A stretch of 21,099 bases of DNA, taken from positions 1 to 21,099 of the forward strand of contig JAGGYF010000043.1 of the NCBI GenBank assembly GCA_021162685.1, given 5' to 3'. The position numbers were made by a program, and so were the translations under genes. Every line of letters starts with the position of its first letter. Position 1 is the first letter of the stretch. Shown here one piece after another: positions 5,492 to 20,987 of this stretch. The stretch comes from Candidatus Iainarchaeum sp. (GTDB taxonomy: Archaea; B1Sed10-29; WALL01). The notes beneath the pieces were generated by a model. It had not been told where the DNA came from. It did no database searches and worked only from the letters and a program-made list of their open reading frames with translations.

Positions 5492-5525
5492 GCCTTTTTT
5501 AATGCAGAATGCGTATAAATATGTG
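5492..5525. promoter_or_regulatory. 34-bp divergent promoter region with a central pseudo-palindrome ATGCA-GAA-TGCGT (5502-5514)
   Basis: TTTTTTAA (5495-5502) is about 24 nt before ATG 5526 on +. TATTTATA (5521-5514) is about 23 nt before ATG 5491 on -. Confidence 0.6.
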
Positions 5526-6989
5526 ATGGCCAGGCGGGGCATAACCACACAACGTTTTAGGATTATCGGAGAACTTCTGCAGCATATTCCAGATATAAGA
5601 AATGGCTCAATCCACATGGTTTTTTCTGATATCGCAGGGCGATTTGGTGTAAGTGAAGACACTGTAAAGAACGTGTTTATGGATATGCTATGGGCAGCAA
5701 ACCCTAAGCATAAATTTTTCAGGGAGAAAAAACCGCGGTCAAGAAATGCAAAGGATGCCCTACCTGTGTATTTTGAACGAGGCGTAGATAAGAAAGAGTT
5801 TGAGGAAGCGTGTAATACCTACTTAGATAACCAGATGAAAAAGACATTTACAGAGGAGAGATTAAAACGCATCAATGCGCTAGTTGACTTCATCTCAAAA
5901 AGGCCAGATAATATACGATATGATGCCCTACATCAGTTTGTGGAGAGATATAATAAAGGGAAGCCAAAGAGAGAATGGGTCACATACGAAACACTCAAAA
6001 ACGACCTATACGGCTTAGCATATGCAACAATTGATCTTCCAGATGGTAGCAAAACAACAAAGAGAGATGTTGCTCCAGCCCATAGAAGTGATTTTGAAAA
6101 GGTAAGAAATGCAATTGAGAGGGGCCTTGTAGATTTTGAAAAGGCAAGGTATGCAAGCCAATTATTTCTTGAACATGCACCAGAAAATGATGTTGAGAGG
6201 ATGCTTCGTGTTTACAAAACAGATGATCCAGACATAGAAAGAATGGCTCAACGATTCGTTAAGTATTTGAGTTGGATGAGGGAATTAAGAGAGCAGCATT
6301 GGAATGCCCATCCTGCACGAGCGTATTCAATGGTTTGGATTTTAGCAGGGAATAAGATACATAACGAAATACCCGAAATAATTGATAGAGTATATGGGCT
6401 GCACAGGCTTGCCAAAGATATAGCTAAAGGTAAGATATCTGTGGAAGATGCAATACAGCATGAAGCGCTATCAAAATATGCTAGAGGTATCACTAAACCA
6501 GAACAATTATTGAAAAGGATAGAGAAGGAGTATGGGATAAGACATAACATGAGAGAAAAAGAGCTTAAAGAGATTGTTGACAAGGCGTATAAACAACTGT
6601 GGGAGGAAAATTTCTTGAAAGTCCAAGCGCTTTTCCATTACGAACAGGCGAGGATAAAACTCGGAAATCTTATAAAGGACCATAAAGAGACAATGCCAGA
6701 TGGAGTAAGGGAATATTATGAGAGCCTATATAAGACAATAAGGAGATGGAACGACCCTGCGAAAAGCCTTAGGAATGTTCCCTCTATTCCAAAAGAACAT
6801 TGGAAACGACTTTACAAGGATACAGTCAAGAATTATGGAAGGCGCATAGAACAGATAACGTTCCATGATGATGATATGCTCAACGATTTCCATAAGCGCA
6901 TCCTGATCATAGGGAGACATCTAAACACAGCAGATAGAATCTACGCAGAGCATATGCGCGTAAGGGAAAAGAATAAATTTAGGTGGTAA
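5526..6989 (+). CDS. Hypothetical helical protein (487 aa) with an N-terminal HTH-like motif
   Basis: Long ORF with natural composition. FSDIAGRFGVSEDTVKNVF resembles a helix-turn-helix. Start moved from 5409 to ATG 5526 (MARRGITT) to avoid overlapping the HerA-like gene. Confidence 0.8.
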   Translation: MARRGITTQRFRIIGELLQHIPDIRNGSIHMVFSDIAGRFGVSEDTVKNVFMDMLWAANPKHKFFREKKPRSRNAKDALPVYFERGVDKKEFEEACNTYLDNQMKKTFTEERLKRINALVDFISKRPDNIRYDALHQFVERYNKGKPKREWVTYETLKNDLYGLAYATIDLPDGSKTTKRDVAPAHRSDFEKVRNAIERGLVDFEKARYASQLFLEHAPENDVERMLRVYKTDDPDIERMAQRFVKYLSWMRELREQHWNAHPARAYSMVWILAGNKIHNEIPEIIDRVYGLHRLAKDIAKGKISVEDAIQHEALSKYARGITKPEQLLKRIEKEYGIRHNMREKELKEIVDKAYKQLWEENFLKVQALFHYEQARIKLGNLIKDHKETMPDGVREYYESLYKTIRRWNDPAKSLRNVPSIPKEHWKRLYKDTVKNYGRRIEQITFHDDDMLNDFHKRILIIGRHLNTADRIYAEHMRVREKNKFRW

Positions 6990-6990
6990 C

Positions 6991-7632
6991 ATGCCTCTTA
7001 GGAGAGTATCTGAAGAGGGATTAAAACTCATGCGAAAGTTCCATGATAGAATGACACATAGCAGAATAAGGCCAACGGATATTGATCATGGAAACATTCA
7101 TCTATTGAGTGGTGAGGAGAGGGAGAAAAAGGCAAAGGAGATCATAGAGGAGTATAATCTGCCAAACATGAGTTCAGAACAGTTAGCAAATGCTGTGAAA
7201 AATCTTATTGAGAGAAAAATGCCAGTTATAAAATTTAACATTGTTCTGGAGGCAATGGACCACATGGATTTTGATGAGTTATACCGCTCTTTCATTGGTG
7301 AGGAACCTCCAGAGCAGACAGAGGAGGAAGGAGAGATTTCAAACGTTGTATTGAGAAGGACACTTCTGAAAATGCTAGAAACACAGGGCGATGAATGGCT
7401 ATCTGAATTGGAACATGAGAAAGCAGCACATGATACATTGAAGGCTGTTGGCGTTGATCTTCCTGAGCCGCGGATAGAACCACCGCACGTTGGAGTAATA
7501 AACTTCAGGATGCTCAATGAGTGGGCAGAAAAGGCAATTGAGGAGGATGAGATTCTAAAAAAGATGGGCGTCCCTGAGCTTTCCTTTATCGCTGAGTGGA
7601 TGAGAAGGATAAAAAAGCAAAAGAAAGAATGA
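6991..7632 (+). CDS. Hypothetical protein (213 aa), probably co-transcribed with the upstream gene
   Basis: Starts 1 nt after the upstream stop, preceded by SD-like AGGTGG. Charged, helical composition; no family recognised. Confidence 0.8.
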   Translation: MPLRRVSEEGLKLMRKFHDRMTHSRIRPTDIDHGNIHLLSGEEREKKAKEIIEEYNLPNMSSEQLANAVKNLIERKMPVIKFNIVLEAMDHMDFDELYRSFIGEEPPEQTEEEGEISNVVLRRTLLKMLETQGDEWLSELEHEKAAHDTLKAVGVDLPEPRIEPPHVGVINFRMLNEWAEKAIEEDEILKKMGVPELSFIAEWMRRIKKQKKE

Positions 7633-8286
7633 TTATTCGGGCATTTCCATGAACCATGGACACTCTGATACCCCTCTTTTTATTGAATAGATATATAATG
7701 TTGGAAGGGTTGGCATGAGAAACTGCATTTCAGGTGGAGAATATGTAAAGAATACAGCATCGCTATATCTTTTTTCTAAGGTTTTCTTTTCACTAATCCT
7801 TACCTTTAAATATCGCTCAGCTGCTTTTTCTGCGCGTATCCTCGCGTGCTTCTTTGCCATTGGAATGAATTTTGATACTAATGTATCATCAATCTTTATG
7901 TTATAGCTACTTTCATATATGTCAGAAAGCCTTGTAATTTTAAATCCATAATGTGATACAATGGGAAGCAGACTAAAATAGTACCTATTACTTTCAAATT
8001 TTGTGCGCCCGTTTATTACAATCGAATGTTTGTCGCAAAAGATTATCTCAACATTTGTTGGTATTTCTTTTGTCATTCTATAGATATTATCAAGAGCCAA
8101 CACATCACTATAATCTGCCATTCCTGTTTTGCTTTCTTTGTGGCCTCCCCACATCCCCACAAGCTTTAGAGGATTACCGAGCATTATTGATTCTCTTATG
8201 CGTTGTTTTAGAGTTTCTGGTAGGAAGGGCCATGCTCTTCTGAACTCCCTTTTCGTAAGCATTTTGTATATGTGTTTTTCATCCAT
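7633..8286 (-). CDS. Small DIT1/PvcA (isocyanide synthase)-like protein, divergent
   Basis: Motif order resembles PvcA-type enzymes: I..G.P.x.V followed by a Lys (IMLGNPLKLVGMWGGHK vs PAFPxK), G..D..D..AL, IIFCD..., Y...L....., I..LSD, and a C-terminal PW (CPWF vs PWH). Recognised by eye only; the CDS is secure but the family call is tentative. Confidence 0.5.
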   Translation of the reverse strand: MDEKHIYKMLTKREFRRAWPFLPETLKQRIRESIMLGNPLKLVGMWGGHKESKTGMADYSDVLALDNIYRMTKEIPTNVEIIFCDKHSIVINGRTKFESNRYYFSLLPIVSHYGFKITRLSDIYESSYNIKIDDTLVSKFIPMAKKHARIRAEKAAERYLKVRISEKKTLEKRYSDAVFFTYSPPEMQFLMPTLPTLYIYSIKRGVSECPWFMEMPE

Positions 8287-8291
8287 TTTTG

Positions 8292-8335
8292 AGGAGAGCC
8301 CAGGCTAACGAAAAAGGGAAATTATGGGCTCTCCT
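8292..8335 (-). promoter_or_regulatory. GC-rich 11-bp perfect inverted repeat (hairpin) ending 5 nt upstream of the 8286 start codon
   Basis: AGGAGAGCCCA (8292-8302) and TGGGCTCTCCT (8325-8335), with a 22-nt loop. Confidence 0.7.
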
Positions 8336-8368
8336 TCCCACCCAGCGTTTATCTATGCCTAGTAAAGG

Positions 8369-8376
8369 TTTTTATA
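8369..8376. promoter_or_regulatory. Putative TATA box TTTTTATA, possibly bidirectional
   Basis: 25 nt upstream of ATG 8402 on +. Reads TATAAAAA on -, positioned to start a transcript just upstream of the hairpin. Confidence 0.55.
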
Positions 8377-8401
8377 GCTGGATAATAAAAGATATGATAG
8401 T

Positions 8402-9307
8402 ATGCATACTAGTATATCAAAATGGCTCGGTATAACAGAACAACAATTAGAGATCATAAAAGCTGTGCAAAAACTGCAGTTAAACAATGAGAAAACAACC
8501 CCAAAAAGGATAGAAGAACAATACAAAAAGACAACTGGAAAGCACATACAAAAACCGAATCTATTTAACCAGTTAAGAACGCTTGTTGAGAAAGGGATAC
8601 TTTCTAGAACAGATAGTGCGGAGTATATCATTTCATATAATAACATAAAGTATGAAATACTGAAAACAAAGCAAATACTTTCTGATGAGATAAAGGAGAT
8701 AGAAAAAGCAAACTTGGATATAGAGTCATTCATGAGGAAGATATCTAGTACACCATTGAGACCCATACTTAGATATTATAATGAGAGCGAGTTTTATGAT
8801 GAACTAGCAAAGCTTATTCAGTCAGCAGACGCATTCTATTGTACAACAAAGTTTCCTGCTGTGACATTTGCTAGTATTATCAACGAGGGAGGATGGGATT
8901 ACTACAAGGTGTTATACAAGAGAGCAATTATTGATAAAGACCTTGAAGTTTTTTATTTAACAGACTTTACTGTCAAAAATCTTCTACATTTCGTCAAGAT
9001 GCTTAGAAAGAAAGATGCAGCAAGACCTATAGTAACTAGGCTCTCCAATGTGTTAAAGGAATGTCCAAATATACATATAAATTATGTTCCTAATATGTAT
9101 GGCATGGACATTGCAATGCCAGAGCAGGGCTTTCCAAAAACATTTTTTGTTATGATAAGGGATTCAGATATGTATACTACAGGGGGCCTCTACATAGATT
9201 CTCCAGAGATAGCAACTGATGTGAAAGGACTTTTCCTAAGGAACTTTGAGAAGGGGAAACCAGTAACCTCAAGGGTTTTGAGCAGTGTAATGGGGCTGAT
9301 TGGTTAG
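8402..9307 (+). CDS. TrmB-like transcriptional regulator (N-terminal wHTH, linker helix, C-terminal effector-binding domain)
   Basis: LGITEQQLEII...NLFNQLRTLVEKGILSR wHTH, a coiled-coil linker, then ELAKLIQSA..FYC and GLYIDSPEIA..VKGLF..NFEKG, typical of the TrmB C-terminal PLD-like fold. Confidence 0.75.
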   Translation: MHTSISKWLGITEQQLEIIKAVQKLQLNNEKTTPKRIEEQYKKTTGKHIQKPNLFNQLRTLVEKGILSRTDSAEYIISYNNIKYEILKTKQILSDEIKEIEKANLDIESFMRKISSTPLRPILRYYNESEFYDELAKLIQSADAFYCTTKFPAVTFASIINEGGWDYYKVLYKRAIIDKDLEVFYLTDFTVKNLLHFVKMLRKKDAARPIVTRLSNVLKECPNIHINYVPNMYGMDIAMPEQGFPKTFFVMIRDSDMYTTGGLYIDSPEIATDVKGLFLRNFEKGKPVTSRVLSSVMGLIG

Positions 9308-9391: not shown

Positions 9392-12178
9392 ATGGACGAG
9401 CAAGAGGTCATAAACTATTGGAATGAGCACAACATACCAAAGAAGGTTTTGGACATCAATAAAGGGAAAAAGAAATTCTATTTTTTGGATGGTCCTCCTT
9501 ATGCAACTGGAAACATACATATGGGTACTGCTTTGAATAAGATTCTCAAGGATTACTATCTTAGATATTTTAGGATGAGGGGATATGACGTTTGGTGTCA
9601 GCCGGGTTATGATTGTCATGGTCTGCCAATAGAGAATAAGGTGGAGAAGAAATTAGGCATACGTGGAAAGGAAGAGATTGAGCAGAAGGTAGGTGTGAAG
9701 GCATTTATTGAGGAATGCAAACACTTCGCAACACAGTATATAGATGTTATGAGTCAACAGTTCAATGATCTCGGCGTGTGGATGCACTGGGATAATCCTT
9801 ACTTAACTCTCCACAAAAGTTACATGGAAGGAGCATGGTATACATTCAAAAAAACATTTGAGAAAGGGCTGCTATACAAGGGAAAGTATCCAGTCCACGT
9901 TTGTCCAAGATGCGAAACAGTTGTAGCATACAACGAGATAGAGTATGAGACAAGAGAGGACACTGCAGTATATGTTAAGTTTAAGTTAAAGGGCAAAGAC
10001 AACGACTATCTGCTCATATGGACAACTACTCCTTGGACATTACCCGCAAATACTGGTGTCATGGTTCATCCAAAATATGAATACGCAAAAGTAGAAACAA
10101 TGGCAGGAAACCTTTGGATTGCTAAGGAGTTGGTTCCAACAGTTATGGAAAAACTTGAGATGGGCTACAAAATTTTAGAAGTTGTTAAGGGCAAGGACAT
10201 GGAAGGATGGGAATACGAACATCCAATGGATATCCCATTGCAGAAAGGCATACAAGGAAGGGTTGTTCTCTCAGATAGATTTGTAAACCTAGAAGACGGA
10301 ACGGGATTAGTACATTGTGCTCCTGGGCATGGAATGGAGGACTATCTAGTAGGAAAAGAGAACGGGCTGGCACAATTAAGTCCACTGGGATTAGATGGTA
10401 GATTTGATGATAGCGTTGGAAAGTATGCAGGCATGTTTGCAAAGGATGCTGATGATGTTATTATTGAGGATTTGAGAAAGGAAGGATATCTGCTAAAAGC
10501 AGAGCGTTTTTCTCACGAATATCCGATGTGTTGGAGATGCAATTCTCCCCTGCTTTTCATTTCTGTGCCGCAGTGGTTCTTCAAGATTGATAAAGAGAAA
10601 TTAATAGAAGCGAACAAAAAGGCAAATTGGGTACCAAAATGGGCAGGTAAGCGATTTGAAAACTGGTTGGAGTCACTGAGTGATTGGCCCATAAGCAGAC
10701 AGCGCTATTGGGGTATACCTCTACCCATATGGGTATGTGATAAATGTGATAAGGTCAAGGTTGTGGGTTCAGCGAAGGAACTTGGTGTAGACCTTGATGA
10801 TTTACATAAGCCGGGCATTGATGAAGTAACACTACAATGCGAATGTGGAGGCACGATGAGAAGAGTACCAGATGTACTAGATGTTTGGTTTGATTCAGGT
10901 GTGGCTCCGTGGGCATCCCTTGGCTACCCTAACCAAAAGGAACCATTTGAATCCATGTGGCCAGTGGATTTTGTTCTAGAAGGGCCAGACCAAACAAGGG
11001 GTTGGTGGAATTCATTGACGATCTGTGGAGTTATAACTTTTGATAGGGTGCCGTTTGAGAATGTATTGCAGCATGGATTGGTTCTGTCAGAGAAAGGAGT
11101 GAAGATGAGCAAGAGCAAAGGAAATGCCATTGAGCCAGAGGAAGTAATTGAGAAATATTCAAGGGACTTATTAAGATACCTCTTCTTGAGGTATGATCCG
11201 TCTTTGGATATAGACTTTTCCTGGGACAAAGCCAAGGAACTACAAAAGTTCTTCACAATCCTTGACAATGTATTTAACTTTTTCACATTGTACTGTAAGA
11301 AAAGCGAGAATTTTGAGAATATGAAACCAGAGGACATTTGGATTATCTCCAAGGTTAATTCGCTTCTAAAGCAAGTTGATGAATACAACAAAACATTCCA
11401 GGGATATAAATCCATCCAAGCCATAGAAAACTTTGTGATAAATGATCTGAGCAGATGGTATATAAAGCTGATAAGAAATAGAACGTGGCCAACATATGAG
11501 GGCAAGGACAAAGAGGCGGCATTTGCTACACTTTATTATGTTCTGAATAGAGTCGCACTCATGCTTGCACCAGCCCTTCCACACAAAACAGAAATGTATA
11601 ACCTAGGTGTTTTTGGATATGAGACAATCCATGCACAGATGCTACCCGAACCTGAAAAAATAGACGAAACAATTGAGAGACAGATGGATATCGTGAGGGA
11701 GATAGTTGAGGCAGTTAACAGTGCAAGGGCAGATGCGAAGATAAAACTTAGGTGGCCTGTAGAGAAACTTGTTGTTGTTACTGATAACGAAGAGGTGAGG
11801 AAAACCGTTGGAGAGTTGAGCGAGTTACTGATGAATGTATGTAATGTGAAGCACATATCCCTAAATGAAGAGTTTGAAGGCACTACCTCAGAATTCTCCT
11901 CTGGAAAAGTCATAATATCAAAGAAACCTATAATGGAAGAGGCATTAGCTTCAGATGTTATCAGACAAATACAAGCAATGAGGAAAAAGGCAGGATTAAA
12001 GGTCGGAGACGAGATAAAATTAATTATTTCTGGCCATGAACTTCTTGATAAGATAAAACCGCGCGTTGTTGATAAAGTAAATGCAAAAGAGTATATTGTT
12101 GGAGAAGTTTCAGGAGAGCAGACAGCAGAAATAGATTTCATGGGGAAGACCATAAAAATAGGATTTTCAAGGGTTTAG
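9392..12178 (+). CDS. ileS: Isoleucine--tRNA ligase (archaeal type)
   Basis: FLDGPPYATGNIHMGT (HIGH variant), PGYDCHGLP, editing-domain WTTTPWT and GTGLVHCAPGHG, DWPISRQRYWG, VLDVWFDSG, EGPDQTRGW, KMSKS, SRWYIKLIR. Confidence 0.99.
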   Translation: MDEQEVINYWNEHNIPKKVLDINKGKKKFYFLDGPPYATGNIHMGTALNKILKDYYLRYFRMRGYDVWCQPGYDCHGLPIENKVEKKLGIRGKEEIEQKVGVKAFIEECKHFATQYIDVMSQQFNDLGVWMHWDNPYLTLHKSYMEGAWYTFKKTFEKGLLYKGKYPVHVCPRCETVVAYNEIEYETREDTAVYVKFKLKGKDNDYLLIWTTTPWTLPANTGVMVHPKYEYAKVETMAGNLWIAKELVPTVMEKLEMGYKILEVVKGKDMEGWEYEHPMDIPLQKGIQGRVVLSDRFVNLEDGTGLVHCAPGHGMEDYLVGKENGLAQLSPLGLDGRFDDSVGKYAGMFAKDADDVIIEDLRKEGYLLKAERFSHEYPMCWRCNSPLLFISVPQWFFKIDKEKLIEANKKANWVPKWAGKRFENWLESLSDWPISRQRYWGIPLPIWVCDKCDKVKVVGSAKELGVDLDDLHKPGIDEVTLQCECGGTMRRVPDVLDVWFDSGVAPWASLGYPNQKEPFESMWPVDFVLEGPDQTRGWWNSLTICGVITFDRVPFENVLQHGLVLSEKGVKMSKSKGNAIEPEEVIEKYSRDLLRYLFLRYDPSLDIDFSWDKAKELQKFFTILDNVFNFFTLYCKKSENFENMKPEDIWIISKVNSLLKQVDEYNKTFQGYKSIQAIENFVINDLSRWYIKLIRNRTWPTYEGKDKEAAFATLYYVLNRVALMLAPALPHKTEMYNLGVFGYETIHAQMLPEPEKIDETIERQMDIVREIVEAVNSARADAKIKLRWPVEKLVVVTDNEEVRKTVGELSELLMNVCNVKHISLNEEFEGTTSEFSSGKVIISKKPIMEEALASDVIRQIQAMRKKAGLKVGDEIKLIISGHELLDKIKPRVVDKVNAKEYIVGEVSGEQTAEIDFMGKTIKIGFSRV

Positions 12179-12217
12179 CTTACAAAGTTTTATATATCTT
12201 TTTGCAAAAATACTACT

Positions 12218-13468
12218 ATGCCATTCAAAAAAATGCCAAAAGAAAGACTTGTCAATGCAGCAATGCACCCAAGTGCAACAAGAAAGTTCCTCAGGAAGTT
12301 CCATGAATACGGCAAGAAAAACGGCTGGTTTCCAGAACTACCAAAAGACATAAAAGAAGAAGAGCTTGGAAGATGGATGCGAAAAAACACAACTCTTTCT
12401 GACAAAGAACTCGTGGAGAAGATGAGGGAATGGGTACATGATTATACAAGTGTGAAGATAATATCCGAGGAGTTCCCTGAATTGAATAAAATCTGTGAGT
12501 TACTAACACAAATGTTAACAACACCTCCACGAAAAACCCTATCTGCATTCCTTCAAACGCATCACGCTGACTGCATGGCAATGTCAACTGCATTGGGAGA
12601 GATGGCAAGAGAGATGGGATTTGATGTTGAGTATCGTGTTGTTGATAGAGAAGGTATTGACACAACTAAACTAACAGAGGAGGAAAAGAGACGTATTGAA
12701 CGGCAAGGGGACAATCATGCATACGTTGTCATTAATGGGGAACAGCATGACCCCTCACTAAATTTTTCATACACAAATCATGAAGAAAAGCCACAGACAA
12801 GGGAAGAGCGTGCAGCAATGATATGGACAAATCACGGAGCCATTTTAAGTCTTATGGGAAAACATGAAAAGGCTTTGACCGCGCATGACATTGCATTAGA
12901 AATAAATCCAAACGATGCACTAGCATGGAACAACAAGGGCGTTACACTTCATGAAATTGGCAGATATGAAGAAGCCCTTGAATACTTCGACAAAGCATTA
13001 AAAATAGAGCCAAAATTTGCAAAAGCATTAATCGGCAAAGGTATTGTACTTTCTAAAATGGGTAGATATAAAAAGGCCATTAAACACTTCGACAAAGCCT
13101 TAAAAATAAATCCAAGATATGCAGAGGCATGGGCCAAAAAAGGAGCTACACTTTGTATGATGGGTAGATACAAAAAGGCCATTAAACACTTCGACAAAGC
13201 CTTAAAAATAAATCCAAACAACGCAGAAGCATGGTACAACAAAGGTATTGCACTTTCTAAAATGGGCAGACATGAAGAAGCCCTTAAAACCGTTGAAGAA
13301 GCACTCAAGAGGATTCCAGAGGGCCATCCTTTAAGAAACAATATTGAATATGCAAGAGACGAAATTAAGAAACGAACAAAGAGCTCACCAAAGATAGGAA
13401 AAGTCAAAAAGCAGAAAAAACGAGGTAGTTTTTTGAAGAGGCTCAGTAACTATTTTAATATGCGATAG
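12218..13468 (+). CDS. Transglutaminase-like (papain-fold) domain fused to five TPR motifs
   Basis: Putative triad ADC(M), NH(AYV) and HD(PS), followed by 34-aa TPR units (AWNNKG..L...GRYEEAL..FDKAL.I.P). TATA-like TTTTATATA at 12188-12196. Confidence 0.85.
   Translation: MPFKKMPKERLVNAAMHPSATRKFLRKFHEYGKKNGWFPELPKDIKEEELGRWMRKNTTLSDKELVEKMREWVHDYTSVKIISEEFPELNKICELLTQMLTTPPRKTLSAFLQTHHADCMAMSTALGEMAREMGFDVEYRVVDREGIDTTKLTEEEKRRIERQGDNHAYVVINGEQHDPSLNFSYTNHEEKPQTREERAAMIWTNHGAILSLMGKHEKALTAHDIALEINPNDALAWNNKGVTLHEIGRYEEALEYFDKALKIEPKFAKALIGKGIVLSKMGRYKKAIKHFDKALKINPRYAEAWAKKGATLCMMGRYKKAIKHFDKALKINPNNAEAWYNKGIALSKMGRHEEALKTVEEALKRIPEGHPLRNNIEYARDEIKKRTKSSPKIGKVKKQKKRGSFLKRLSNYFNMR
13036..13266 (+). 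repeat. Near-identical nucleotide repeats between TPR units (102-nt register)
   Basis: 13058-13115 vs 13160-13217: 57/58 identical. 13036-13062 vs 13240-13266: 26/27 identical. Confidence 0.9.
13453..13460 (+). promoter_or_regulatory. Putative TATA box for the C/D sRNA, inside the 3' end of the TPR gene
   Basis: TTTTAATA ends about 21 nt upstream of the sRNA terminal stem. Confidence 0.55.
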
Positions 13469-13481
13469 ACAATAACATATC

Positions 13482-13547
13482 GCGCGGATGAAGAGCCCTA
13501 TGAGTGATGAGCATTTGCGATGATTACAGACGGGCGGTCTGACGCGC
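13482..13547 (+). ncRNA. Archaeal box C/D 2'-O-methylation guide sRNA; predicted targets 16S rRNA C1402 and pre-tRNA-Met(CAU) C34
   Basis: Terminal stem GCGCG/CGCGC; box C AUGAAGA (13488-94); 12-nt guide; D' AUGA (13507-10); short stem-loop; C' AUGAUUA (13520-26); 12-nt guide; D CUGA (13539-42). Both K-turns have 3-nt GAU bulges. It fills the GC-rich gap between two convergent genes. Confidence 0.95.
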
Positions 13548-13548
13548 A

Positions 13549-15822
13549 CTATTTGGGTTTTCCAAGTCTTATGCGATGTTCTTTTCCGCCGTATTTTATT
13601 ACTATCCCCCTCTTTCCTGTGAGGACATCAATAATAATATTCCTATACATAACCACAATTATGATAACACCAATAGAAATGATGAGAACAAATAATAGAA
13701 AGACAATGAGGAAACCCATAACTATGCCTTCATAGTTAGGCCCTTTTGTTTCGTTCATCTGTTCAGTAATATTTACCTCCTCTACGGTTTCGTTTTCTAT
13801 GGTAATATTCTCCTCTTTTGTTTCGTTTGTTACATTTTCTACAACTTCCTCTTTTGGTTCCTCCTCATATGTTGCTAGGATAGGATCCTCAAATGAGACC
13901 TGTTCAACATTCTTATTGACCTCATAGCTTACTTCTTCAACCTCTCCTGGTTTTAGCTCCAATTTCCATACAACTACTGGATCAAGGGAGACAATTTTTG
14001 TAGGAAGAGGTGAGAACAGAACAGAAGGCTTTACACACCTCTGCTCGCACTGTTGTACATATGTACTATTATCAATCTTTTTAGAGCAGTCATCACAGCG
14101 TTTAGATTTAACAATTGCATCTACGATGCACTCATAGGAGTTATTACATGCCTCAATCATCTTGTCAAGTTCTGCCTCTGTGGTTAAGTTATAGATCTCA
14201 TCCAGATAAGGCGAAAGATTCTCTATTATCTCCTTACTTATATTCTCAGTGATCTCTACCCATACCTTCTTATCCTTCGTATTCTTCACAACCAAAGATA
14301 CTTTTGATCTGCCGCCATAGTCAATATACCTTCTGACACTTACCTTATCCTCTGGAAATGCAATAGAAGGAACACTTACACTGATGCTTTTGGAGATGCT
14401 CCCATAGTTTGTTTTGAATACAATCTTTAATGTGTAGTTCCCTGGCCGTATGTACCTTTTAGGCGTTACAATCACATGGAATGTTTCATTTTTGTATACC
14501 CCAACGTCCTTGTATTCAGAAGGAGTAACCATAAAGTGCTCATATGCTCCTTCTTCTTCAACATCTACCTTTCCTCTTACCACGATATCATTTGTGTTGT
14601 TTATCACCACAGTTATGTTTTCTGCTTCCTTTAATCCTATCTCAATAGACGTTTCATTTCCCACCGAGATAAAGTTTAATTTTTTTGTTACATTTGCAAT
14701 GGGTTGTACTGCCTCTTCTTTGTAATATTTTATGTTGCTCACATTCAGGTCTAGTTCCAATGTTTTGCTTAATCCGTATTTTCCGGAGACAGTTAGAACA
14801 ATTTTGTACAAACTTGTATTTGATGGTGCTTTAAACGAAAAATGATAATAACCATCACTTCTTATATCGTCCTCCTCTTCTATCAGGACCGTATCATCCT
14901 TTTTTACTTTCATTTTTACGAGCGGATATGTGTCATCATAAAACTGCCCAATTGTTTTTCCTGTATCATAAAAGACATAACCATCAAGATACATACTTGT
15001 GTTCCCTTTCACCTTTTTTATCTCCTCTATTGGCCGTTTGTATCCAAAATACTCTATAGCATATAAACTCGCGTTCATCTCTATGCTCCTTACAAAATAG
15101 ACATTATTTATTGTTGCGTTGAAATACCAATCTGGTGGGGACGTGCCTTCTACAAATATTGTGTATAATGTGGCATACGTCTGAGTTGAATAATTTTCTG
15201 TACAGTTTTCCTGCCCATCACAACTATCTAGTTTCACCTTTGCACATTTTGTTATATCTACCGTGGCACTTCCTCCTGTGTAATTCCCTTCTGCGCATGT
15301 TCCGTTGCTGTTATATATTTTATATGTACCATTGACAAAAGAAGATTCTTTGCCTCCCGACAATTTAGCTCTAATATTCAGTTTGATGCTTTCGTTATCT
15401 GTTGCAGGAGTAAATGTGAAATTTGCTTTTAATCCTATCATATCTGGTACTTTACACTTCACGTATGTGCTTGCAATTGTATCTCCCTCATGGTCTACTT
15501 CTGCATCAACCCAGGTGTATGCACCAAATGTTTGGTTTGAGAGCATCTTTGCAGTAACTGTTTTTGAAATAGAGGAGTTGGCAGTCAGATTAGTTAATTC
15601 AAAATAAACCCTCTTTTTTCCGTCTACTGTCATTACTGATGCATTTGTGTCAACTGAAAGCGTGAAATTTGCAGTTTCATTCCCAGTATTCTTCACAGTT
15701 ATTGTAAAGGATACAGAATCTCCTGGTAGCAGCAATTGTGTAGTGCTTGGACTCATAGAAACTGTTGCAGATGCTGCTAATACTGTGCTGACCAGCAAGA
15801 CAACATAGAGCAGGCGTTTCAT
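13549..15822 (-). CDS. Membrane-anchored cell-surface protein with Ig-like (CARDB/NEW3-like) domains, probably N-glycosylated
   Basis: Signal peptide MKRLLYVVLLVSTVLAASA; PGDSVSFTITVKNTGN and PGNYTLKIVF Ig-like strands; many N-x-S/T sequons; Glu-rich stalk; C-terminal TM helix and basic tail. Confidence 0.85.
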   Translation of the reverse strand: MKRLLYVVLLVSTVLAASATVSMSPSTTQLLLPGDSVSFTITVKNTGNETANFTLSVDTNASVMTVDGKKRVYFELTNLTANSSISKTVTAKMLSNQTFGAYTWVDAEVDHEGDTIASTYVKCKVPDMIGLKANFTFTPATDNESIKLNIRAKLSGGKESSFVNGTYKIYNSNGTCAEGNYTGGSATVDITKCAKVKLDSCDGQENCTENYSTQTYATLYTIFVEGTSPPDWYFNATINNVYFVRSIEMNASLYAIEYFGYKRPIEEIKKVKGNTSMYLDGYVFYDTGKTIGQFYDDTYPLVKMKVKKDDTVLIEEEDDIRSDGYYHFSFKAPSNTSLYKIVLTVSGKYGLSKTLELDLNVSNIKYYKEEAVQPIANVTKKLNFISVGNETSIEIGLKEAENITVVINNTNDIVVRGKVDVEEEGAYEHFMVTPSEYKDVGVYKNETFHVIVTPKRYIRPGNYTLKIVFKTNYGSISKSISVSVPSIAFPEDKVSVRRYIDYGGRSKVSLVVKNTKDKKVWVEITENISKEIIENLSPYLDEIYNLTTEAELDKMIEACNNSYECIVDAIVKSKRCDDCSKKIDNSTYVQQCEQRCVKPSVLFSPLPTKIVSLDPVVVWKLELKPGEVEEVSYEVNKNVEQVSFEDPILATYEEEPKEEVVENVTNETKEENITIENETVEEVNITEQMNETKGPNYEGIVMGFLIVFLLFVLIISIGVIIIVVMYRNIIIDVLTGKRGIVIKYGGKEHRIRLGKPK

Positions 15823-15860: not shown

Positions 15861-18497
15861 TTATGCTAGGAAGTTTGCAGCAAATAGCGCAATAACCATA
15901 AGAATTACAGCATGCTTCAGCCCAGCCATAAAGTTGCCTTCTGTAAGCTCACCAATAGATATACCAGAAAAGAACGCCTGTATGAGGAATAGGTAGAACA
16001 TAATATCTGTAAATCTACTCCTAATATGCTCACGTGCAGCAGAGGTTACTGCTTGTGAAACACCAGGGATACTTATCCCAGATGAAGCATTCCCCATAAA
16101 GGGTGTTTGTGCCTTTGCTGCTTCAACAAATAGTGAGTTGTTCAATATTACAAGTACACCCAAGAAAACGATAAATATGATGTACCCGCTGATTATGTGT
16201 ATCTGTAGTTCGCTCATCCTCTTCTTTTTTAGGTTCCTTATGTGCCTGAAGTTAAAAGCAGTTGCTCCGAATATCTGTGATAGTCTTCCTCCCCCTGCCT
16301 TATATGCAGAGATTAAAACAGTGATAGCGCTTTTTATACTATCACTTTTTGTCTCCTCCCCTAACTTCTTGAATGCCTCAGGGAATGGAACGCCAAGTTC
16401 AATCCTATTGTTCAGCTTGTTGATAAGTTTGGAGAGCGGCCCATAATCTGAATTCTTTATTATCTTAAGTGCAGTTGGAAGAGGAAGTTGTGAACCCATG
16501 ATAGAATGTAAATCTGATAGGAAATCAGGGAATGCATCCTCATAGTGAATAACATTCTTATACTGTTTATAGTAATACACAAAACTCGGTATTATAAGTA
16601 TCAAGAAGGTTATGCCAAGCAATGTGTTTAACTGAAAGGGAGTTGGTTTTTCTGATGGTTGAACAAGGAATGGAACCGCTTTATTTCCTGCTTCATCCTC
16701 TAGATAGCCGAGGACAACTGCGTTCTCCAAGGTATCATTTGGTTGTATAGTATATATTCCCCTATACAAACCTGGTTTAACCTCTTCCATATCTGCTTTG
16801 ACAGAGTAGTTCGTGGTTGCGTTTATATCCCTCAGCTCAAACCACGCCTTGCATTCTGGCTCCCCTCTCATCCACACCTCTATAGTTTCCCCAATGAGTA
16901 ATGATTTCGTTGCATTATGCCATACATCCTCAATCGTTGGTGGGATTGTGTCAATGTAAAATGGGCTGCTTATAATTGGTTCTGCTATATTTCCTGCTTT
17001 GTCCACAAACTTTGCGAATATCCATGAAACAATAGACAGGTTTTCATTCTCTATCCTATACGTTCCCATGTATACTCCTGGCTCAACTTCTTCCATTACA
17101 ATGTTTTGGGATACATTTGATATATCAAATGTGGCAATGCCCTCTGGCTCGCTTCTAAAACTAACATTTACAGTAAAGTTCATACCAACTGCTGCCTTTA
17201 TGTTATGTTTGAATCCTACAATTGTTGGTACAATGGTATCCACTATCACTGGATTTTTAGCAGCAACGCTCCTGGCTAAATTCCCTGCCCTATCCTTGAA
17301 TATGCCTATTACTTCTGCACCCTCAGTATTCTCATCCGTGATTTTATATGTACCAACATAAAGTCCTGGCTCAACTTCTTCCATGTCATACGTATTCTCC
17401 AAAAACTTAAATTTCGCTGTGCCTCCCGGCTCTGCTTCAAGCGTTACTTCCAAAACATCCCCAGATTTAAGGGGGGAGATTGCATTGTGCGAGATAGAAA
17501 GTATAATAGGCGGCAATGAATCAAGTTCAATAGGTGTGAATATTCTTATACTCTGATTCCCGTCTTTTGTGAGAACAACCCTTACATCTGGTTTCTTCTC
17601 AATTCCATATACATCAAATGTATATTCTCCTTTGTATATGCCAGGCGCTGTTTCAGCCATCTTTGTGACTGGTGAGAAACCAATAACCTCAAATGTTGCA
17701 TTGCATCCCTTCTCACCGTGCAATCTGAATTCAACACTCTCACCAAAAGTCAACGGCTTTGTCACATTTGTTTCCAGTCCAAATATGCTTGGACCGGGTG
17801 TATCAATAGAAACATTCATTGTTCTTTCGATGTCGGCTTTGTTTCCAAGATAATCCTCTGTGTGTATAACAATATCCAGCTTTTTCCTATCATCCCCGTT
17901 CTTTACTGTATATTGTGCAATGTATACTCCTGGCTCAGTTTCTGTGCATGGAATTCCCTCTACAATTGTTTTGATGTCCAAAGACAATGTTGCGTTTTCT
18001 TCTGAACGAATAGTGAATGTTATAACCTCGCCAGCACCATACCTTTCCTTATCTGTACTTATTGCACTAATTTCAGGCGGTGAGACATCTATATGTATGC
18101 TCCTTCCGTTCAATCTCACAGTATTATTTAACTTCATAAGAATTGCTTCAACACTGATATTCATTGATTTATTTACTCTTTCAAATGCATAGTCCAATGC
18201 ATACTCTCCTTTTGATATCTCATTCATTGGTACGATTTCATCTATCTCTTTAAAATTAACAAACGCCAGCGCATTTTCAGTGCCTCTGAGTGTGAAATGA
18301 ACCACCGTCGTGTTGCTTATTGGCTCAACAGCAGTATGATTGAAGTAGGATATATTCACCTTTACAAGATAGGTCGGCTCAACACGTATATATCCTCCAC
18401 GTTCCATTGTTGTACTATAAAAATAGTATCCTACTGTGAAGGTAATCACTGCTAGAATCAATGATACAATCACTGTGTTTACCAATGTTTTCTCCAC
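15861..18497 (-). CDS. Type II secretion F-family (TadC/PilC-like) pilus platform protein with about six extracellular Ig-like repeats
   Basis: C-terminal T2SSF signature (FPDFLSDL...G..LP.AL....DYGPLS..I......IELG.PF.EAF...AYKAGG) and terminal IQAFFSG..IG.L.EG....GLKH helices. N-terminal TM followed by about 96-aa repeats with E..PG.Y.G.Y. The GTG start overlaps the upstream TAG by 1 nt. Confidence 0.92.
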   Translation of the reverse strand: MEKTLVNTVIVSLILAVITFTVGYYFYSTTMERGGYIRVEPTYLVKVNISYFNHTAVEPISNTTVVHFTLRGTENALAFVNFKEIDEIVPMNEISKGEYALDYAFERVNKSMNISVEAILMKLNNTVRLNGRSIHIDVSPPEISAISTDKERYGAGEVITFTIRSEENATLSLDIKTIVEGIPCTETEPGVYIAQYTVKNGDDRKKLDIVIHTEDYLGNKADIERTMNVSIDTPGPSIFGLETNVTKPLTFGESVEFRLHGEKGCNATFEVIGFSPVTKMAETAPGIYKGEYTFDVYGIEKKPDVRVVLTKDGNQSIRIFTPIELDSLPPIILSISHNAISPLKSGDVLEVTLEAEPGGTAKFKFLENTYDMEEVEPGLYVGTYKITDENTEGAEVIGIFKDRAGNLARSVAAKNPVIVDTIVPTIVGFKHNIKAAVGMNFTVNVSFRSEPEGIATFDISNVSQNIVMEEVEPGVYMGTYRIENENLSIVSWIFAKFVDKAGNIAEPIISSPFYIDTIPPTIEDVWHNATKSLLIGETIEVWMRGEPECKAWFELRDINATTNYSVKADMEEVKPGLYRGIYTIQPNDTLENAVVLGYLEDEAGNKAVPFLVQPSEKPTPFQLNTLLGITFLILIIPSFVYYYKQYKNVIHYEDAFPDFLSDLHSIMGSQLPLPTALKIIKNSDYGPLSKLINKLNNRIELGVPFPEAFKKLGEETKSDSIKSAITVLISAYKAGGGRLSQIFGATAFNFRHIRNLKKKRMSELQIHIISGYIIFIVFLGVLVILNNSLFVEAAKAQTPFMGNASSGISIPGVSQAVTSAAREHIRSRFTDIMFYLFLIQAFFSGISIGELTEGNFMAGLKHAVILMVIALFAANFLA
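16680..18330 (-). repeat. Array of about six ~95-100-aa beta-rich protein repeats (approximate bounds)
   Basis: Cores EISKGEY, ETEPGVY, ETAPGIY, EVEPGLY, EVEPGVY and EVKPGLY, with ID..PP.I linkers and D.AGN turns. An identical 21-mer at 17076-17096 and 17364-17384 is 288 nt (96 aa) apart. Confidence 0.9.
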
Positions 18498-19375
18498 TAT
18501 ATCACTTCTGGTTGTGTCATCTTTACAATAATGATGAACATGATGTTTATCAGGGGTATTCCAACAAATACGCCAGCAACAAACAATTGGAATGTAATTT
18601 CAGGCGATACAACGGCGCCGCCTATGAGGTCCCCTACTCCACTAGAACTGATAAAATCAATAATTGCAATGCCAGTGATGAACAGCAGTGGAGCAACAAG
18701 GGCAACTACTAGGTATATGCTACCAAGTGTGTCAGATACTCTTTCATACTCCTCTTGCTGTCTTTCGTAATGTGCCATCCTATCCTCTGCTTTCTCCTCA
18801 AAGAACCGTGTTATGTTTCCACCAGAGATGATCTCACTCTTCAGGCTTTTTAGTATCTCCCTGAATTGTTTTGATGGACATTTTTCAGATTCTCTTTCAA
18901 GCGCAGTCGGTAGGTCCATACCCAGTACATTACAATCTCTTGCTATCCTTCGTGCCTCTTTTGATATTTCCTCGTATTCTTCAAAGTCAGCAAGCATTGA
19001 GAATGCAGTAATCGGAGGAGCGCCAGAACCAAGGAGTGCTGCCATATAATTCAGTGCCAGTGGCAACTCAGCATCAATCTTCTTTTTTCTTGAATCCACT
19101 CTTTCCATAGGATAGATATACAAAAGGAAAAGGAGAAGTAGCGAGGCAAGCATTGCTCCCAAAAATTTTAGGAATATATCGGCTGTTGGCAAAATAACAA
19201 ATACTATAACAAACGCTATTGCAGTTGTCACAATCACTGCGCTAACATATTCATGGAATAGTAATGGGATGGATGCTTGCTCATATATCTTTTTATAACT
19301 AGCAAACTTGTCTTTCAACCTGTTGTAACCTATTAACTCACCACACTTTTCAATATACCATTCAAGTGGATTCAT
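18497..19375 (-). CDS. Type II secretion F-family (TadC/ArlJ-like) pilus platform protein
   Basis: YP..R..SR..KID.ELP.AL.YM..L.GSG, EISKEA.RI.RD..VLG.D...AL......PS..F, SGG motifs; four TM helices. ATG 19375 preferred over GTG 19381 because of the GGTGA SD-like sequence just upstream. Confidence 0.93.
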   Translation of the reverse strand: MNPLEWYIEKCGELIGYNRLKDKFASYKKIYEQASIPLLFHEYVSAVIVTTAIAFVIVFVILPTADIFLKFLGAMLASLLLLFLLYIYPMERVDSRKKKIDAELPLALNYMAALLGSGAPPITAFSMLADFEEYEEISKEARRIARDCNVLGMDLPTALERESEKCPSKQFREILKSLKSEIISGGNITRFFEEKAEDRMAHYERQQEEYERVSDTLGSIYLVVALVAPLLFITGIAIIDFISSSGVGDLIGGAVVSPEITFQLFVAGVFVGIPLINIMFIIIVKMTQPEVI

Positions 19376-19377
19376 TA

Positions 19378-20949
19378 TCACCCACTCTCGCTTTCCAAAA
19401 GTTTAAACGCCATATCTGGATTATTTTGATACATATGGATCCAAACAGGGAAATCACTAAATGTTATATTCTTTTTCAACATTTCTTCAAGGAACTCTGC
19501 TCTTCTGAACATTTCCTTTTCCCCCAGCGTTTTCTCGTCTTCATCTGTGACCTCTTTATACACAGCGCCTTTTTTGTGTTTGAGCATACCATACTCCTCT
19601 AATATCTTGCTTCCTCCAAGATATTCCAAAATATCCTCCTTTGGTTTCCACTTAAATATCTTCTTTGATTCTATATCCCTTCCAGATGGCATTATCTCAA
19701 TAATCTCCTTTGCCCTCCTTGCATTTTCTTTTATCTCTGGTGTTGATATCTGCAATACTAAAATATCTAATATCTTTATCAAGCTCTTTGGGAGATTTAT
19801 AGGAGGAGTTGAGAGCCTCTCTATCACAGCATCTAATGACTCTGCATGAATTGTTCCAAGGCCAGAGTGCCCAGATGCCATACCTTGAAACATCACTGTT
19901 GCCTCTTTTCCCCTCACCTCTCCTACAATAACGTAATCTGGTCTTTGTCTAAAAGATGCTTTTAGGAGGTCAAACATAGAAACTTCGCCGTACTTCTCTC
20001 CAGAACCTGTGCTAGCCAATCCACTTCTTGATATGCTCTGAATCCAGTTCTCATGTAGCAGATTAAGTTCTGCAGTATCCTCTATGCTCACGATTTTCAG
20101 GTTCTCAGGTATGAAAAGAGAGATGGCATTCAGCACAGTTGTTTTACCAGATGCTGTCCCTCCACATATCAGGATGTTTTTCCTGGTTTCAATTGCGATC
20201 CACAAATAAGCCAGCGCCAATGAATTAAATGTACCCAACTTTATCAGGTCCAATGGAGTGAATGGTATCTCCCTAAACTTCCTTATGTCAAATGTTGGTC
20301 CTCTAACAGTGACACCTGCCCCAAATGTTGCATTTACTCTTGCACCGTTTTTTAGGCTGCCATCCAATAGTGGCTCTCCATACGAAATAAACCTACCACA
20401 CTTTTGTGATAGTTTTATAACGAAATTTTCAAGTTCTTTCAGGTCTTTATAGACGATGTTTGTTTTTATGCTCCCAAAGTCCCTATGACTTATGTATATA
20501 GGTATGTTCAGCCCATCACATGATATATCCTCAATGTTTGGGTCATGCATCAATGGCTCTATCTTCTCCAAACCTAAGAAGTCCCTTTTCAGATAGTACA
20601 ATATGAGTTTCTCCTCTTCTGGGTCAAATTTGATTTTAAACCGCTTCTTAAACTCCTCAAATTTTTTGTTTATGTACTCCTCAAGATTGTCTTCAACAAG
20701 TTCAACGTCTGCATCCATCACTTCTATAATATACTTCTTTATCTTCTCTATCTCACCAATCTCCTTGTTCGTTATTTTTGGTTCAATGACCTTGTATATC
20801 AATGTTTTACCAACCCTCTCAATACGCGCTTTTGCATAACCTGGGATGAGCCAATACTCTCTGATAACCCCCTCTTTTGGCTTCTTCTCCACTGTTTTGA
20901 CCTTGCCCTTCGTCTTTCGCTCCTTCTTCCCTTTCTTTTTTGCCACCAT
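19378..20949 (-). CDS. Archaeal type IV pilus assembly ATPase (VirB11/TadA/ArlI family)
   Basis: DPNIEDISCDG, Walker A GGTASGKTT, Asp box SIEDTAEL, RQRPDYVIVGEVRG (Walker B), His box SGHSGLGTIHA. Confidence 0.97.
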   Translation of the reverse strand: MVAKKKGKKERKTKGKVKTVEKKPKEGVIREYWLIPGYAKARIERVGKTLIYKVIEPKITNKEIGEIEKIKKYIIEVMDADVELVEDNLEEYINKKFEEFKKRFKIKFDPEEEKLILYYLKRDFLGLEKIEPLMHDPNIEDISCDGLNIPIYISHRDFGSIKTNIVYKDLKELENFVIKLSQKCGRFISYGEPLLDGSLKNGARVNATFGAGVTVRGPTFDIRKFREIPFTPLDLIKLGTFNSLALAYLWIAIETRKNILICGGTASGKTTVLNAISLFIPENLKIVSIEDTAELNLLHENWIQSISRSGLASTGSGEKYGEVSMFDLLKASFRQRPDYVIVGEVRGKEATVMFQGMASGHSGLGTIHAESLDAVIERLSTPPINLPKSLIKILDILVLQISTPEIKENARRAKEIIEIMPSGRDIESKKIFKWKPKEDILEYLGGSKILEEYGMLKHKKGAVYKEVTDEDEKTLGEKEMFRRAEFLEEMLKKNITFSDFPVWIHMYQNNPDMAFKLLESESG

Positions 20950-20970
20950 ACAAATCCAATCATCTTATAG

Positions 20971-20987
20971 TATATAAAATATATATA
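20971..20987. promoter_or_regulatory. Shared bidirectional TATA region between the pilus ATPase operon and the prepilin
   Basis: TATATAAAATATATATA lies centrally in a 61-bp spacer, 21-23 nt from each ATG. Confidence 0.6.

Follow-up and report, generated by a model that had tools for sequence, protein, structure and literature searches.

A split archaeal type IV filament platform with a predicted six-domain Ig-like array in one membrane loop

The locus and its platform genes

We analysed a stretch of 21,099 bases (hereafter the window), which is the complete contig C6 of a 1.11-Mb draft genome of Candidatus Iainarchaeum sp. (genome G000; 45 contigs, rated 98% complete). The draft is of the metagenome type, and its nearest relatives are labelled Candidatus Iainarchaeum or Diapherotrites (DPANN archaea). 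Our subject is a protein of 878 amino acids (aa), encoded at 15861..18497, that is predicted to form one half of the platform of a type IV filament machine and to expose six immunoglobulin (Ig)-like repeats on the outer side of the membrane. Of the core parts of such machines the platform is the least understood, and it is usually pictured as facing the cytoplasm, with small outer loops. Four minus-strand genes lie head to tail at this locus and encode, in order, a secretion ATPase, a predicted first-half platform subunit, the array-bearing second-half subunit and a 757-aa secreted protein; the features of this locus given below all lie on the minus strand of the window.

The first gene (19378..20949) encodes a 523-aa ATPase of the T2SSE/VirB11 type that resembles archaeal FlaI and PilB (Pfam T2SSE, 5.6e-33). 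Among NCBIfam models this ATPase scores best against FlaI, with 366.5 bits, under that model's cut-off of 550. The contig ends 150 bases upstream of this gene, and an A/T-rich, TATA-box-like stretch read from the sequence 16-38 nucleotides (nt) 5' of the ATPase ATG (20965..20987) is a possible promoter of the operon. The ATPase gene overlaps the first-half platform gene by 4 bases, and the two platform genes overlap by 1 base, the GTG start of the second falling on the stop of the first. The first-half subunit (18497..19381, 294 aa) has a single T2SSF domain (Pfam, 4e-14, residues 110-235) and a tight hairpin of two N-terminal transmembrane (TM) helices, joined by about 4 residues (PTAD), in keeping with the loop of a few residues described for this paralogue in the initial annotation.

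The reading frame of the 878-aa protein is open throughout, with no stop or frame change. Pfam recognises in it a single T2SSF domain at residues 659-785 (16143..16523; E 3.3e-16, 59.8 bits against a curated cut-off of 25.2), and a genome-wide scan agrees, which places the protein in the T2SSF platform family (PF00482; the GspF/PilC/TadC/ArlJ superfamily). Hydropathy marks four TM segments, at residues 1-28, 621-644, 761-794 and 854-878, and describes a polytopic membrane protein with helices flanking the T2SSF bundle. An AlphaFold2 (AF2) model built from a 7-sequence alignment (mean predicted local distance difference test score, pLDDT, 75.9; predicted template-modelling score, pTM, 0.36) also has long helices, at residues 2-31 and 621-667, an all-beta region between them, whose 10-residue blocks mostly have pLDDT values of 75-91, and a helical remainder. 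The N-terminal helix TM1 (residues 1-28, 18414..18497; helix 2-31 in the model) is thus separated from TM2 (621-644, 16566..16637) by the array. TM3 (761-794), an outer loop (795-853) of low model confidence with one glycosylation sequon at residue 803, and TM4 (854-878) together occupy 15864..16217.

The array itself, at residues 35-619, consists of six repeats delimited by motif and alignment and modelled as all-beta domains. They are repeat 1 (residues 35-137, 18087..18395), repeat 2 (138-232, 17802..18086), repeat 3 (233-326, 17520..17801), repeat 4 (327-420, 17238..17519), repeat 5 (421-516, 16950..17237) and repeat 6 (517-619, 16641..16949). Pfam, hydropathy and AF2 together show the whole order that the initial annotation had proposed, from TM1 through the array and TM2 to one T2SSF domain and the terminal helices. 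Its count of six beta-rich repeats also stands; the lengths it gave, about 96 aa per repeat and about 590 aa for the loop, become 94-103 aa and about 585 aa.

The two platform genes match opposite halves of full-length platform models. The 294-aa protein aligns to positions 7-213 of the 555-residue ArlJ model and 27-253 of the 484-residue UpsF model of NCBIfam, and the C-terminal part of the 878-aa protein (hereafter the C part) aligns to positions 302-542 of the ArlJ model; the two proteins are distant paralogues (24% identity over 83 aa, E 3e-4). Since all scores lie far under the equivalog cut-offs (52.7 bits for ArlJ against 550 and 17.8 bits for UpsF against 400), the pair represents a split platform and not an archaellum. 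An archaellar ArlJ/FlaJ protein was rejected on the same ArlJ score and on the presence of one T2SSF domain instead of two. Taken together, two adjacent single-T2SSF genes that correspond to the two halves of a platform strongly support, at the level of sequence, that the 878-aa gene encodes the second-half subunit of a two-gene platform of the TadB/TadC or EpdJ/EpdK kind in a type IV filament machine.

With the split platforms of Tad and Epd systems (CpaG/CpaH, TadB/TadC and EpdJ/EpdK of Methanococcus) the locus shares the adjacent pair of single-T2SSF genes beside one ATPase; it differs from them in that ordinary members have a few-residue hairpin where this protein has an outer array of about 585 aa in six domains. 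ArlJ/FlaJ and UpsF share the homologous T2SSF core and TM helices but carry two T2SSF domains in one protein, whereas here they are divided between two genes and an ectodomain is added. In a 2026 census of archaeal type IV filaments, as far as the parts covered of that source go, the Epd-like 'system 1' is described as having a pair of platform genes and as present in DPANN archaea, in which ATPase and platform genes adjoin and pilin genes are dispersed (PMC13705601). The window locus fits system 1 in its gene organisation only. No Epd-specific pilin was identified here, and no search aimed at arCOG06620 was made. The genome encodes two Peptidase_A24 (prepilin peptidase) matches above the cut-off, as expected of a type IV filament producer, and many candidates with N-termini of the K/R-G-Q/A type were found on other contigs by a crude motif scan. 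The same scan found none on C6, in line with the dispersed pilins of system 1.

Five split platform pairs are present in this 1.1-Mb genome, on contigs C38, C36 (two pairs), C44 and C6, a large investment in type IV filament machines for a genome of that size. Several of these pairs have class III signal candidates and surface proteins rich in sequons as neighbours. The genome also holds one 705-aa multi-TM form of T2SSF protein.

Conservation and distribution of the six-repeat form

A length-restricted search with the C part retrieved P0005 and P0007-P0011, six proteins that are 851-880 aa long and share 59-100% identity with the query region. Besides the window protein there are, in other words, five distinct orthologues and a 99%-identical 874-aa protein, P0005. 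The same kind of search also returned a 785-aa protein with a hydrophobic N-terminal region in place of the repeats. One orthologue is annotated by NCBI as a 'type II secretion system F family protein', and another, P0007, begins with MEKTLVN at an ATG (the window gene uses GTG). A wider HMMER scan of 1.84 billion representative sequences gave 1846 matches at E up to 0.001, and we checked 153 proteins (P0005-P0157), namely the 150 best listed together with P0006, P0011 and P0012 from other searches. The platform C part was found in 122 of these and the repeats in 37; both occur together in 7, which comprise six six-repeat forms and one 608-aa form whose three repeats match repeats 4-6.

In a metagenome-type draft split into 45 contigs, the 878-aa frame could have arisen by a misassembly that fused a gene for a surface protein to one for a platform. 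We regard such an artefact as extremely improbable. Six more proteins in the databases and two more genomes of the family show the same architecture, and the orthologue alignment is colinear across the junction between repeats and T2SSF domain, which answers the concern since these orthologues are independent. The long forms P0007-P0011 and P0013 each derive from single contigs, obtained from NCBI, JGI/IMG and Logan sources, and the three-repeat gene lies within a 31.8-kb contig and is therefore complete. A chimeric assembly was rejected on these independent colinear orthologues and on the lack of any stop or frame change. The 878-aa frame is a real, conserved gene.

The long form has a narrow distribution. 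A scan of the class covered 31 genomes (a search of the phylum gave the same 31), and 29 of them gave a match with the protein as query; those extending over the array were confined to G000, G022 and G023, that is, to 3 of the 6 genomes of family f1 and none of the 25 outside it. Within the same family, genus g4 has a short orthologue of 287 aa (44% identity) in the same order of ATPase, first half and second half. A scan of metagenome contigs gave no further six-repeat locus among 80 loci, none of which matched the repeat region, the earliest query residue matched being 558; by match span and identity only, those loci resemble the Marine Group II (MGII) type described below.

Among the orthologues, sequence divergence in the array runs at twice the rate of that in the membrane part (31.5% against 63.5% identity), and the length of the array is kept at 573-585 aa in all six-repeat orthologues. 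Repeats 1 and 5 are the most variable and repeats 4 and 6 the least, with repeat 6 the most conserved (39.7% identity). In a tree of 39 repeats, the sequences cluster by position in the array and not by species. Repeats 1, 2 and 6 form supported clades (98/86, 99/98 and 97/91, respectively), and the six position labels require 5 changes on the tree against 23.9 in shuffles. The six-domain order is therefore older than the split of the orthologues, and an array homogenised by concerted evolution was ruled out by the same clustering.

Outward location, geometry and fold of the array

We then consider on which side of the membrane the array lies. The 878-aa protein contains 21 N-glycosylation sequons (N-x-S/T), 19 of them in residues 36-630, where composition-preserving shuffles give 4.96±2.01 and none of 2000 shuffles reaches 19. 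For sequon excess it ranks 5th of 885 open reading frames (ORFs) of at least 150 aa in the genome. The ectodomains of the six orthologues contain 8-19 sequons each, against 0-3 in their C parts. The genome also encodes an STT3/AglB oligosaccharyltransferase (82.1 bits against a cut-off of 24.5), so that both the enzyme and the enrichment of sequons in the exposed part are present, as expected for an N-glycosylated surface protein. In addition, the array is acidic (isoelectric point 4.4-4.9), and a cluster of Lys and Arg residues lies on the T2SSF side of TM3, with a net charge of +3.3 over six orthologues.

In the Tad study, within the parts covered, T2SSF is a cytoplasmic, ATPase-contacting six-helix bundle (PMC12019362). 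As one TM helix, TM2, separates the array from the T2SSF domain, the two would lie on opposite sides of the membrane. Both the glycosylation and the topology are predicted, and the evidence strongly supports an array that faces outward. The possibility that the repeats are cytoplasmic was rejected on the sequon excess, the presence of AglB and the number of TM helices. The initial suggestion that the platform itself bears a long extracellular array of beta-rich repeats with many sequons therefore agrees with the evidence.

The geometry of the array depends on the fate of TM1. This helix aligns with the first helix of the short relatives and is better conserved among the orthologues than the ectodomain (44% against 31.5% identity), and for these two reasons we think that it is probably kept in the mature protein, where it would form the first arm of the hairpin. 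If so, the array would be a closed loop, or arch, fixed at both ends and reaching at most about three domains outward. The free 'stalk' of the initial annotation is unlikely in that case, since both ends of the array would sit in the membrane. The contrary geometry, in which TM1 is a cleaved signal or a detachable anchor and the array a linear stalk of about 20-25 nm held by TM2, concerns the shape of the array only. The sequence TVG|YY after the hydrophobic stretch could fit a cleavage site with small residues at -3 and -1, tandem Ig arrays joined by short linkers such as PPxI often form rods, and the best fold matches are six-Ig rods or ectodomains. Yet the hydrophobic stretch, at about 23 residues, is long for a signal peptide, and TM1 is both better conserved than the array and homologous to the TM1 of the short form, where it is part of the hairpin. 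We consider a free rod unlikely.

The six repeats share 7 invariant columns and a common motif, PPxI ... ExxPGxYxGxY ... DxAGN. Self-BLAST of the 878-aa protein returned the self match only, and the repeat profile detects three repeats in P0013, a sequence outside the profile, with i-E values of 1.5e-16, 1.2e-18 and 1.7e-26. Both the all-beta AF2 model and Foldseek point to a beta-sandwich fold. The top Foldseek matches are tandem Ig arrays, namely the PirB/LILRB3 ectodomain (E 4e-20), titin I65-I70, CEA and contactin; their template-modelling scores (TM-scores) are low, 0.11-0.21, because the arrangement of the domains differs. None of the six repeats matches a Pfam Ig family at E up to 5, including the curated Big_* families, and sequence searches of the PDB with the repeat profile and with the C part gave nothing meaningful.

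The nearest likeness is to the Big_12/Big_13-type families of giant surface proteins, which share with the array the beta-sandwich fold and the end motif DxAGN. A phmmer search ties the array to P0030, a protein with ten Big_12 domains, at E 3.3e-39 over 9 stretches. Unlike these families, however, the array repeats reach no Pfam Ig family, and the profile-profile link is weak, hhalign of the repeat alignment against P0030 giving E 0.051 and a probability of 1%. On the model, then, the repeats are Big-like at the level of the fold only.

Most carriers of this repeat type are surface proteins without a platform part. Among the 153 proteins checked, 30 of the 37 that bear repeats are repeat-only giants, of up to 6117 aa with 26 repeats, and some end in type IX secretion system (T9SS), dockerin or FlgD_ig tails. 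This company speaks for an adhesin or host-contact module: exposed at the cell surface, the array would attach to a glycan, a substrate or a partner cell, and the platform would anchor it in the membrane beside the pilus. The twofold faster evolution of the array fits the same view, and CpaF/TadC loci resembling those of type IV pili are proposed candidates for host interaction in other DPANN archaea, in the parts of the source covered (PMC11291902). A doubly anchored loop would, on the other hand, reach only about three domains outward, and the number and order of repeats are fixed among the six-repeat orthologues, unlike those of typical length-variable adhesins. Pfam recognises no binding domain (lectin, vWA and the like), and no faster-evolving 'tip' can be discerned, the most variable repeats being the first and the fifth. 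We therefore hold an adhesin to be a rather doubtful explanation.

Neighbouring genes, related inserts and a possible role

The last gene of the operon (13549..15822), 38 nt downstream of the 878-aa gene, encodes the 757-aa secreted protein, which starts with a Sec-type signal and ends in a TM anchor. It contains 35 sequons against 7.9 expected and ranks 2nd of the 885 ORFs for sequon excess, and it is a candidate S-layer-like surface glycoprotein. The order of ATPase, first half, second half and glycoprotein recurs in L013, a Candidatus Iainarchaeum contig, where a homologue of the 757-aa protein follows the long platform gene (28% identity, E 5e-70). A T2SSE/VirB11-type ATPase adjoins the platform genes at the window locus, at L013 and at L108. 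With this query, the 757-aa family is represented by a single ORF in every one of the 6 genomes of f1, and across the class it is detected in 13 of 31 genomes. Close to its long-form operon, L013 also encodes a KaiC-family ATPase and a 1206-aa protein (region 10758-15120); the latter has two matches under their cut-offs, to a class III signal peptide (18.1 against 23.7 bits) and to MG2 (26.7 against 32.8).

The remainder of the window holds genes of other kinds. On the minus strand, at 1367-5662, lies a 1431-aa HerA/DUF87-type ATPase with a C-terminal winged-helix-like tail, split by an intein (about residues 133-717) that has a LAGLIDADG homing endonuclease. ORFs of 526, 213, 217, 301 and 135 aa lie at 5409-9307, between this intein-bearing ATPase and the isoleucyl-tRNA synthetase (IleRS), and belong to no Pfam or NCBIfam family. 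A 416-aa tetratricopeptide repeat (TPR) protein on the plus strand (12218-13468) is convergent with the surface-protein gene; its best NCBIfam likeness is to a PilW-type TPR model, at 101.9 bits and under the cut-off of 154. A 429-aa ORF on the minus strand (3-1289) runs off the contig end and has a weak N-acetylmuramidase-like match, E 0.0012, under the cut-off.

The platform loop that holds the array is also occupied in relatives. We surveyed the 80 best of 349 relatives' loci in species-representative genomes and classed them by hydropathy; because these 80 are dominated by marine genomes and are the best matches, the proportions of the classes are not frequencies. They comprise 2 Ig-array forms, 17 tight hairpins, 18 proteins extended by additional TM helices at the N-terminus and 1 truncated at the end of its contig. 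Inserts in the TM1-TM2 loop mark the remainder, which are 6 Nanohaloarchaea-type loci (403-410 aa; insert of about 110 aa) and 36 MGII-type loci (511-626 aa; about 180-290 aa in the loop). The Nanohaloarchaea and MGII inserts occupy the same position as the array, between the two N-terminal TM helices of a single-T2SSF half, but are unrelated to it in sequence. The repeat profile gave no match to them (best E 2.4), they belong to no Pfam family, and an Atlas look-up of the MGII loop gave no usable match. Across an alignment of 32 MGII proteins, the median loop length is 196 aa, and four cysteines lie in the loop and none elsewhere in the protein.

Extra helices form a separate set of observations. 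About 8-10 additional TM helices precede the single T2SSF half in Thermoplasmata-type relatives of 573-601 aa (L038, L057, L060, L063, L064, L068, L070, L072, L077, L078, L080, L082, L087, L089 and L090), and about 13 do so in P0133, an 856-aa Thermoplasmata-type representative. Two further loci, L061 and L075, have archaeal-type single-T2SSF platform genes in records labelled Deltaproteobacteria and Proteobacteria, labels that likely reflect binning errors or transfers.

The recurrence of unrelated inserts in one loop would be expected if the loop were simply permissive and the array a tolerated accretion, a glycan-bearing shield or spacer with no specific part in filament assembly; the sister genus g4, which has no insert, could be read in the same way. 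The position-specific conservation of the six repeats and a frame kept intact despite divergence to about 31% identity argue, however, for purifying selection on the whole array, and the four conserved cysteines of the MGII loops argue for folded, selected domains there too. Accretion is, in our judgement, quite improbable. The Ig array thus appears to be the extreme case of a recurrent and apparently undescribed theme of loop inserts.

In the full-text literature, with most subscription journals and supplementary tables outside the scope, no account of an Ig-like ectodomain on a platform protein came to light, and none of the parts covered of four papers (PMC13705601, PMC4858521, PMC12019362 and PMC11291902) describes such an architecture. 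The nearest statement in the parts of the census covered is a mention of 'distinctive extra loops', which platforms of subsystem 4C have at their termini (PMC13705601). The proposal of an undescribed variant machine thus holds in so far as no description was found, and must be qualified in that the array is no isolated case, other inserts occupying the same loop in relatives.

We tentatively favour, at somewhat less than an even chance, a reading in which the array is a scaffold or collar of fixed length between the membrane and the surface layer, tying the platform to the envelope and aligning it there. The constant length of 573-585 aa and the clustering of repeats by position favour such a scaffold over a variable adhesin. 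If TM1 is retained, the array would form a closed loop anchored at both ends, rising about three domains (roughly 10-12 nm) over the membrane at the periphery of the platform. In the parts covered of the Tad study, the platform is modelled as a trimer of CpaG-CpaH heterodimers, with the N-terminal helix of one half at the lateral gap of pilin entry, outside the central shaft, and rotation of the platform is proposed (PMC12019362). By analogy, the insert may leave from the periphery, and three arches would then ring the exit of the filament. The array could couple the platform to the surface layer and so keep the exit aligned, and its candidate partner is the adjacent 757-aa glycoprotein.

A comparable role may be filled elsewhere by separate proteins, namely the ArlF/ArlG stator of archaella and the alignment complexes of bacteria. 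Both consist of beta-sandwich proteins that lie beyond the membrane and fasten the machine to the envelope. A stator role of ArlFG in the archaellum is given in the parts of the census covered (PMC13705601). ArlF/ArlG and the alignment complexes have no detectable sequence relation to the repeats, and the likeness to the array would be one of function only.

However, it is important to note that several observations weigh against the scaffold and its proposed partner. The three-repeat variant means that the length is not absolutely fixed, and the 287-aa orthologue of g4 means that the array is not essential to this type of machine. The homologue of the 757-aa protein is adjacent at 2 of the 3 long-form loci seen and not at L014, and the family also occurs in the short-platform genus, so that the array and the glycoprotein are not strictly coupled. 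The inter-domain geometry of the AF2 model is unreliable, as its low pTM indicates, and the crude motif scan found no class III signal or pilin candidate on this contig.

A broader proposal, which we consider unlikely to hold as a whole, is that archaea without a bacterial alignment complex have repeatedly built an envelope-spanning part into the platform by way of the TM1-TM2 loop, here as a glycosylated collar or stator of six Ig domains. If true, this part would have one domain in Nanohaloarchaea and two or three in MGII, whereas Iainarchaeia would have three or six domains of the Ig type. Where there are six, the three arches of each machine would make a glycosylated collar bound to the surface layer, which would either resist the torque of the ATPase or turn along with the platform, and the collar would be a natural, visible handle for in situ tests of rotary platform models.

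A conserved array of about 585 aa implies that the N-terminal hairpin must lie at a periphery of the platform that tolerates large modules. DPANN and MGII archaea may solve the problem of envelope coupling inside the platform itself. The array could in addition act as a natural label by which tomography could locate, count and orient the platform subunits, and the long-form genera and their short-form sister genus, within one family, offer a natural experiment.

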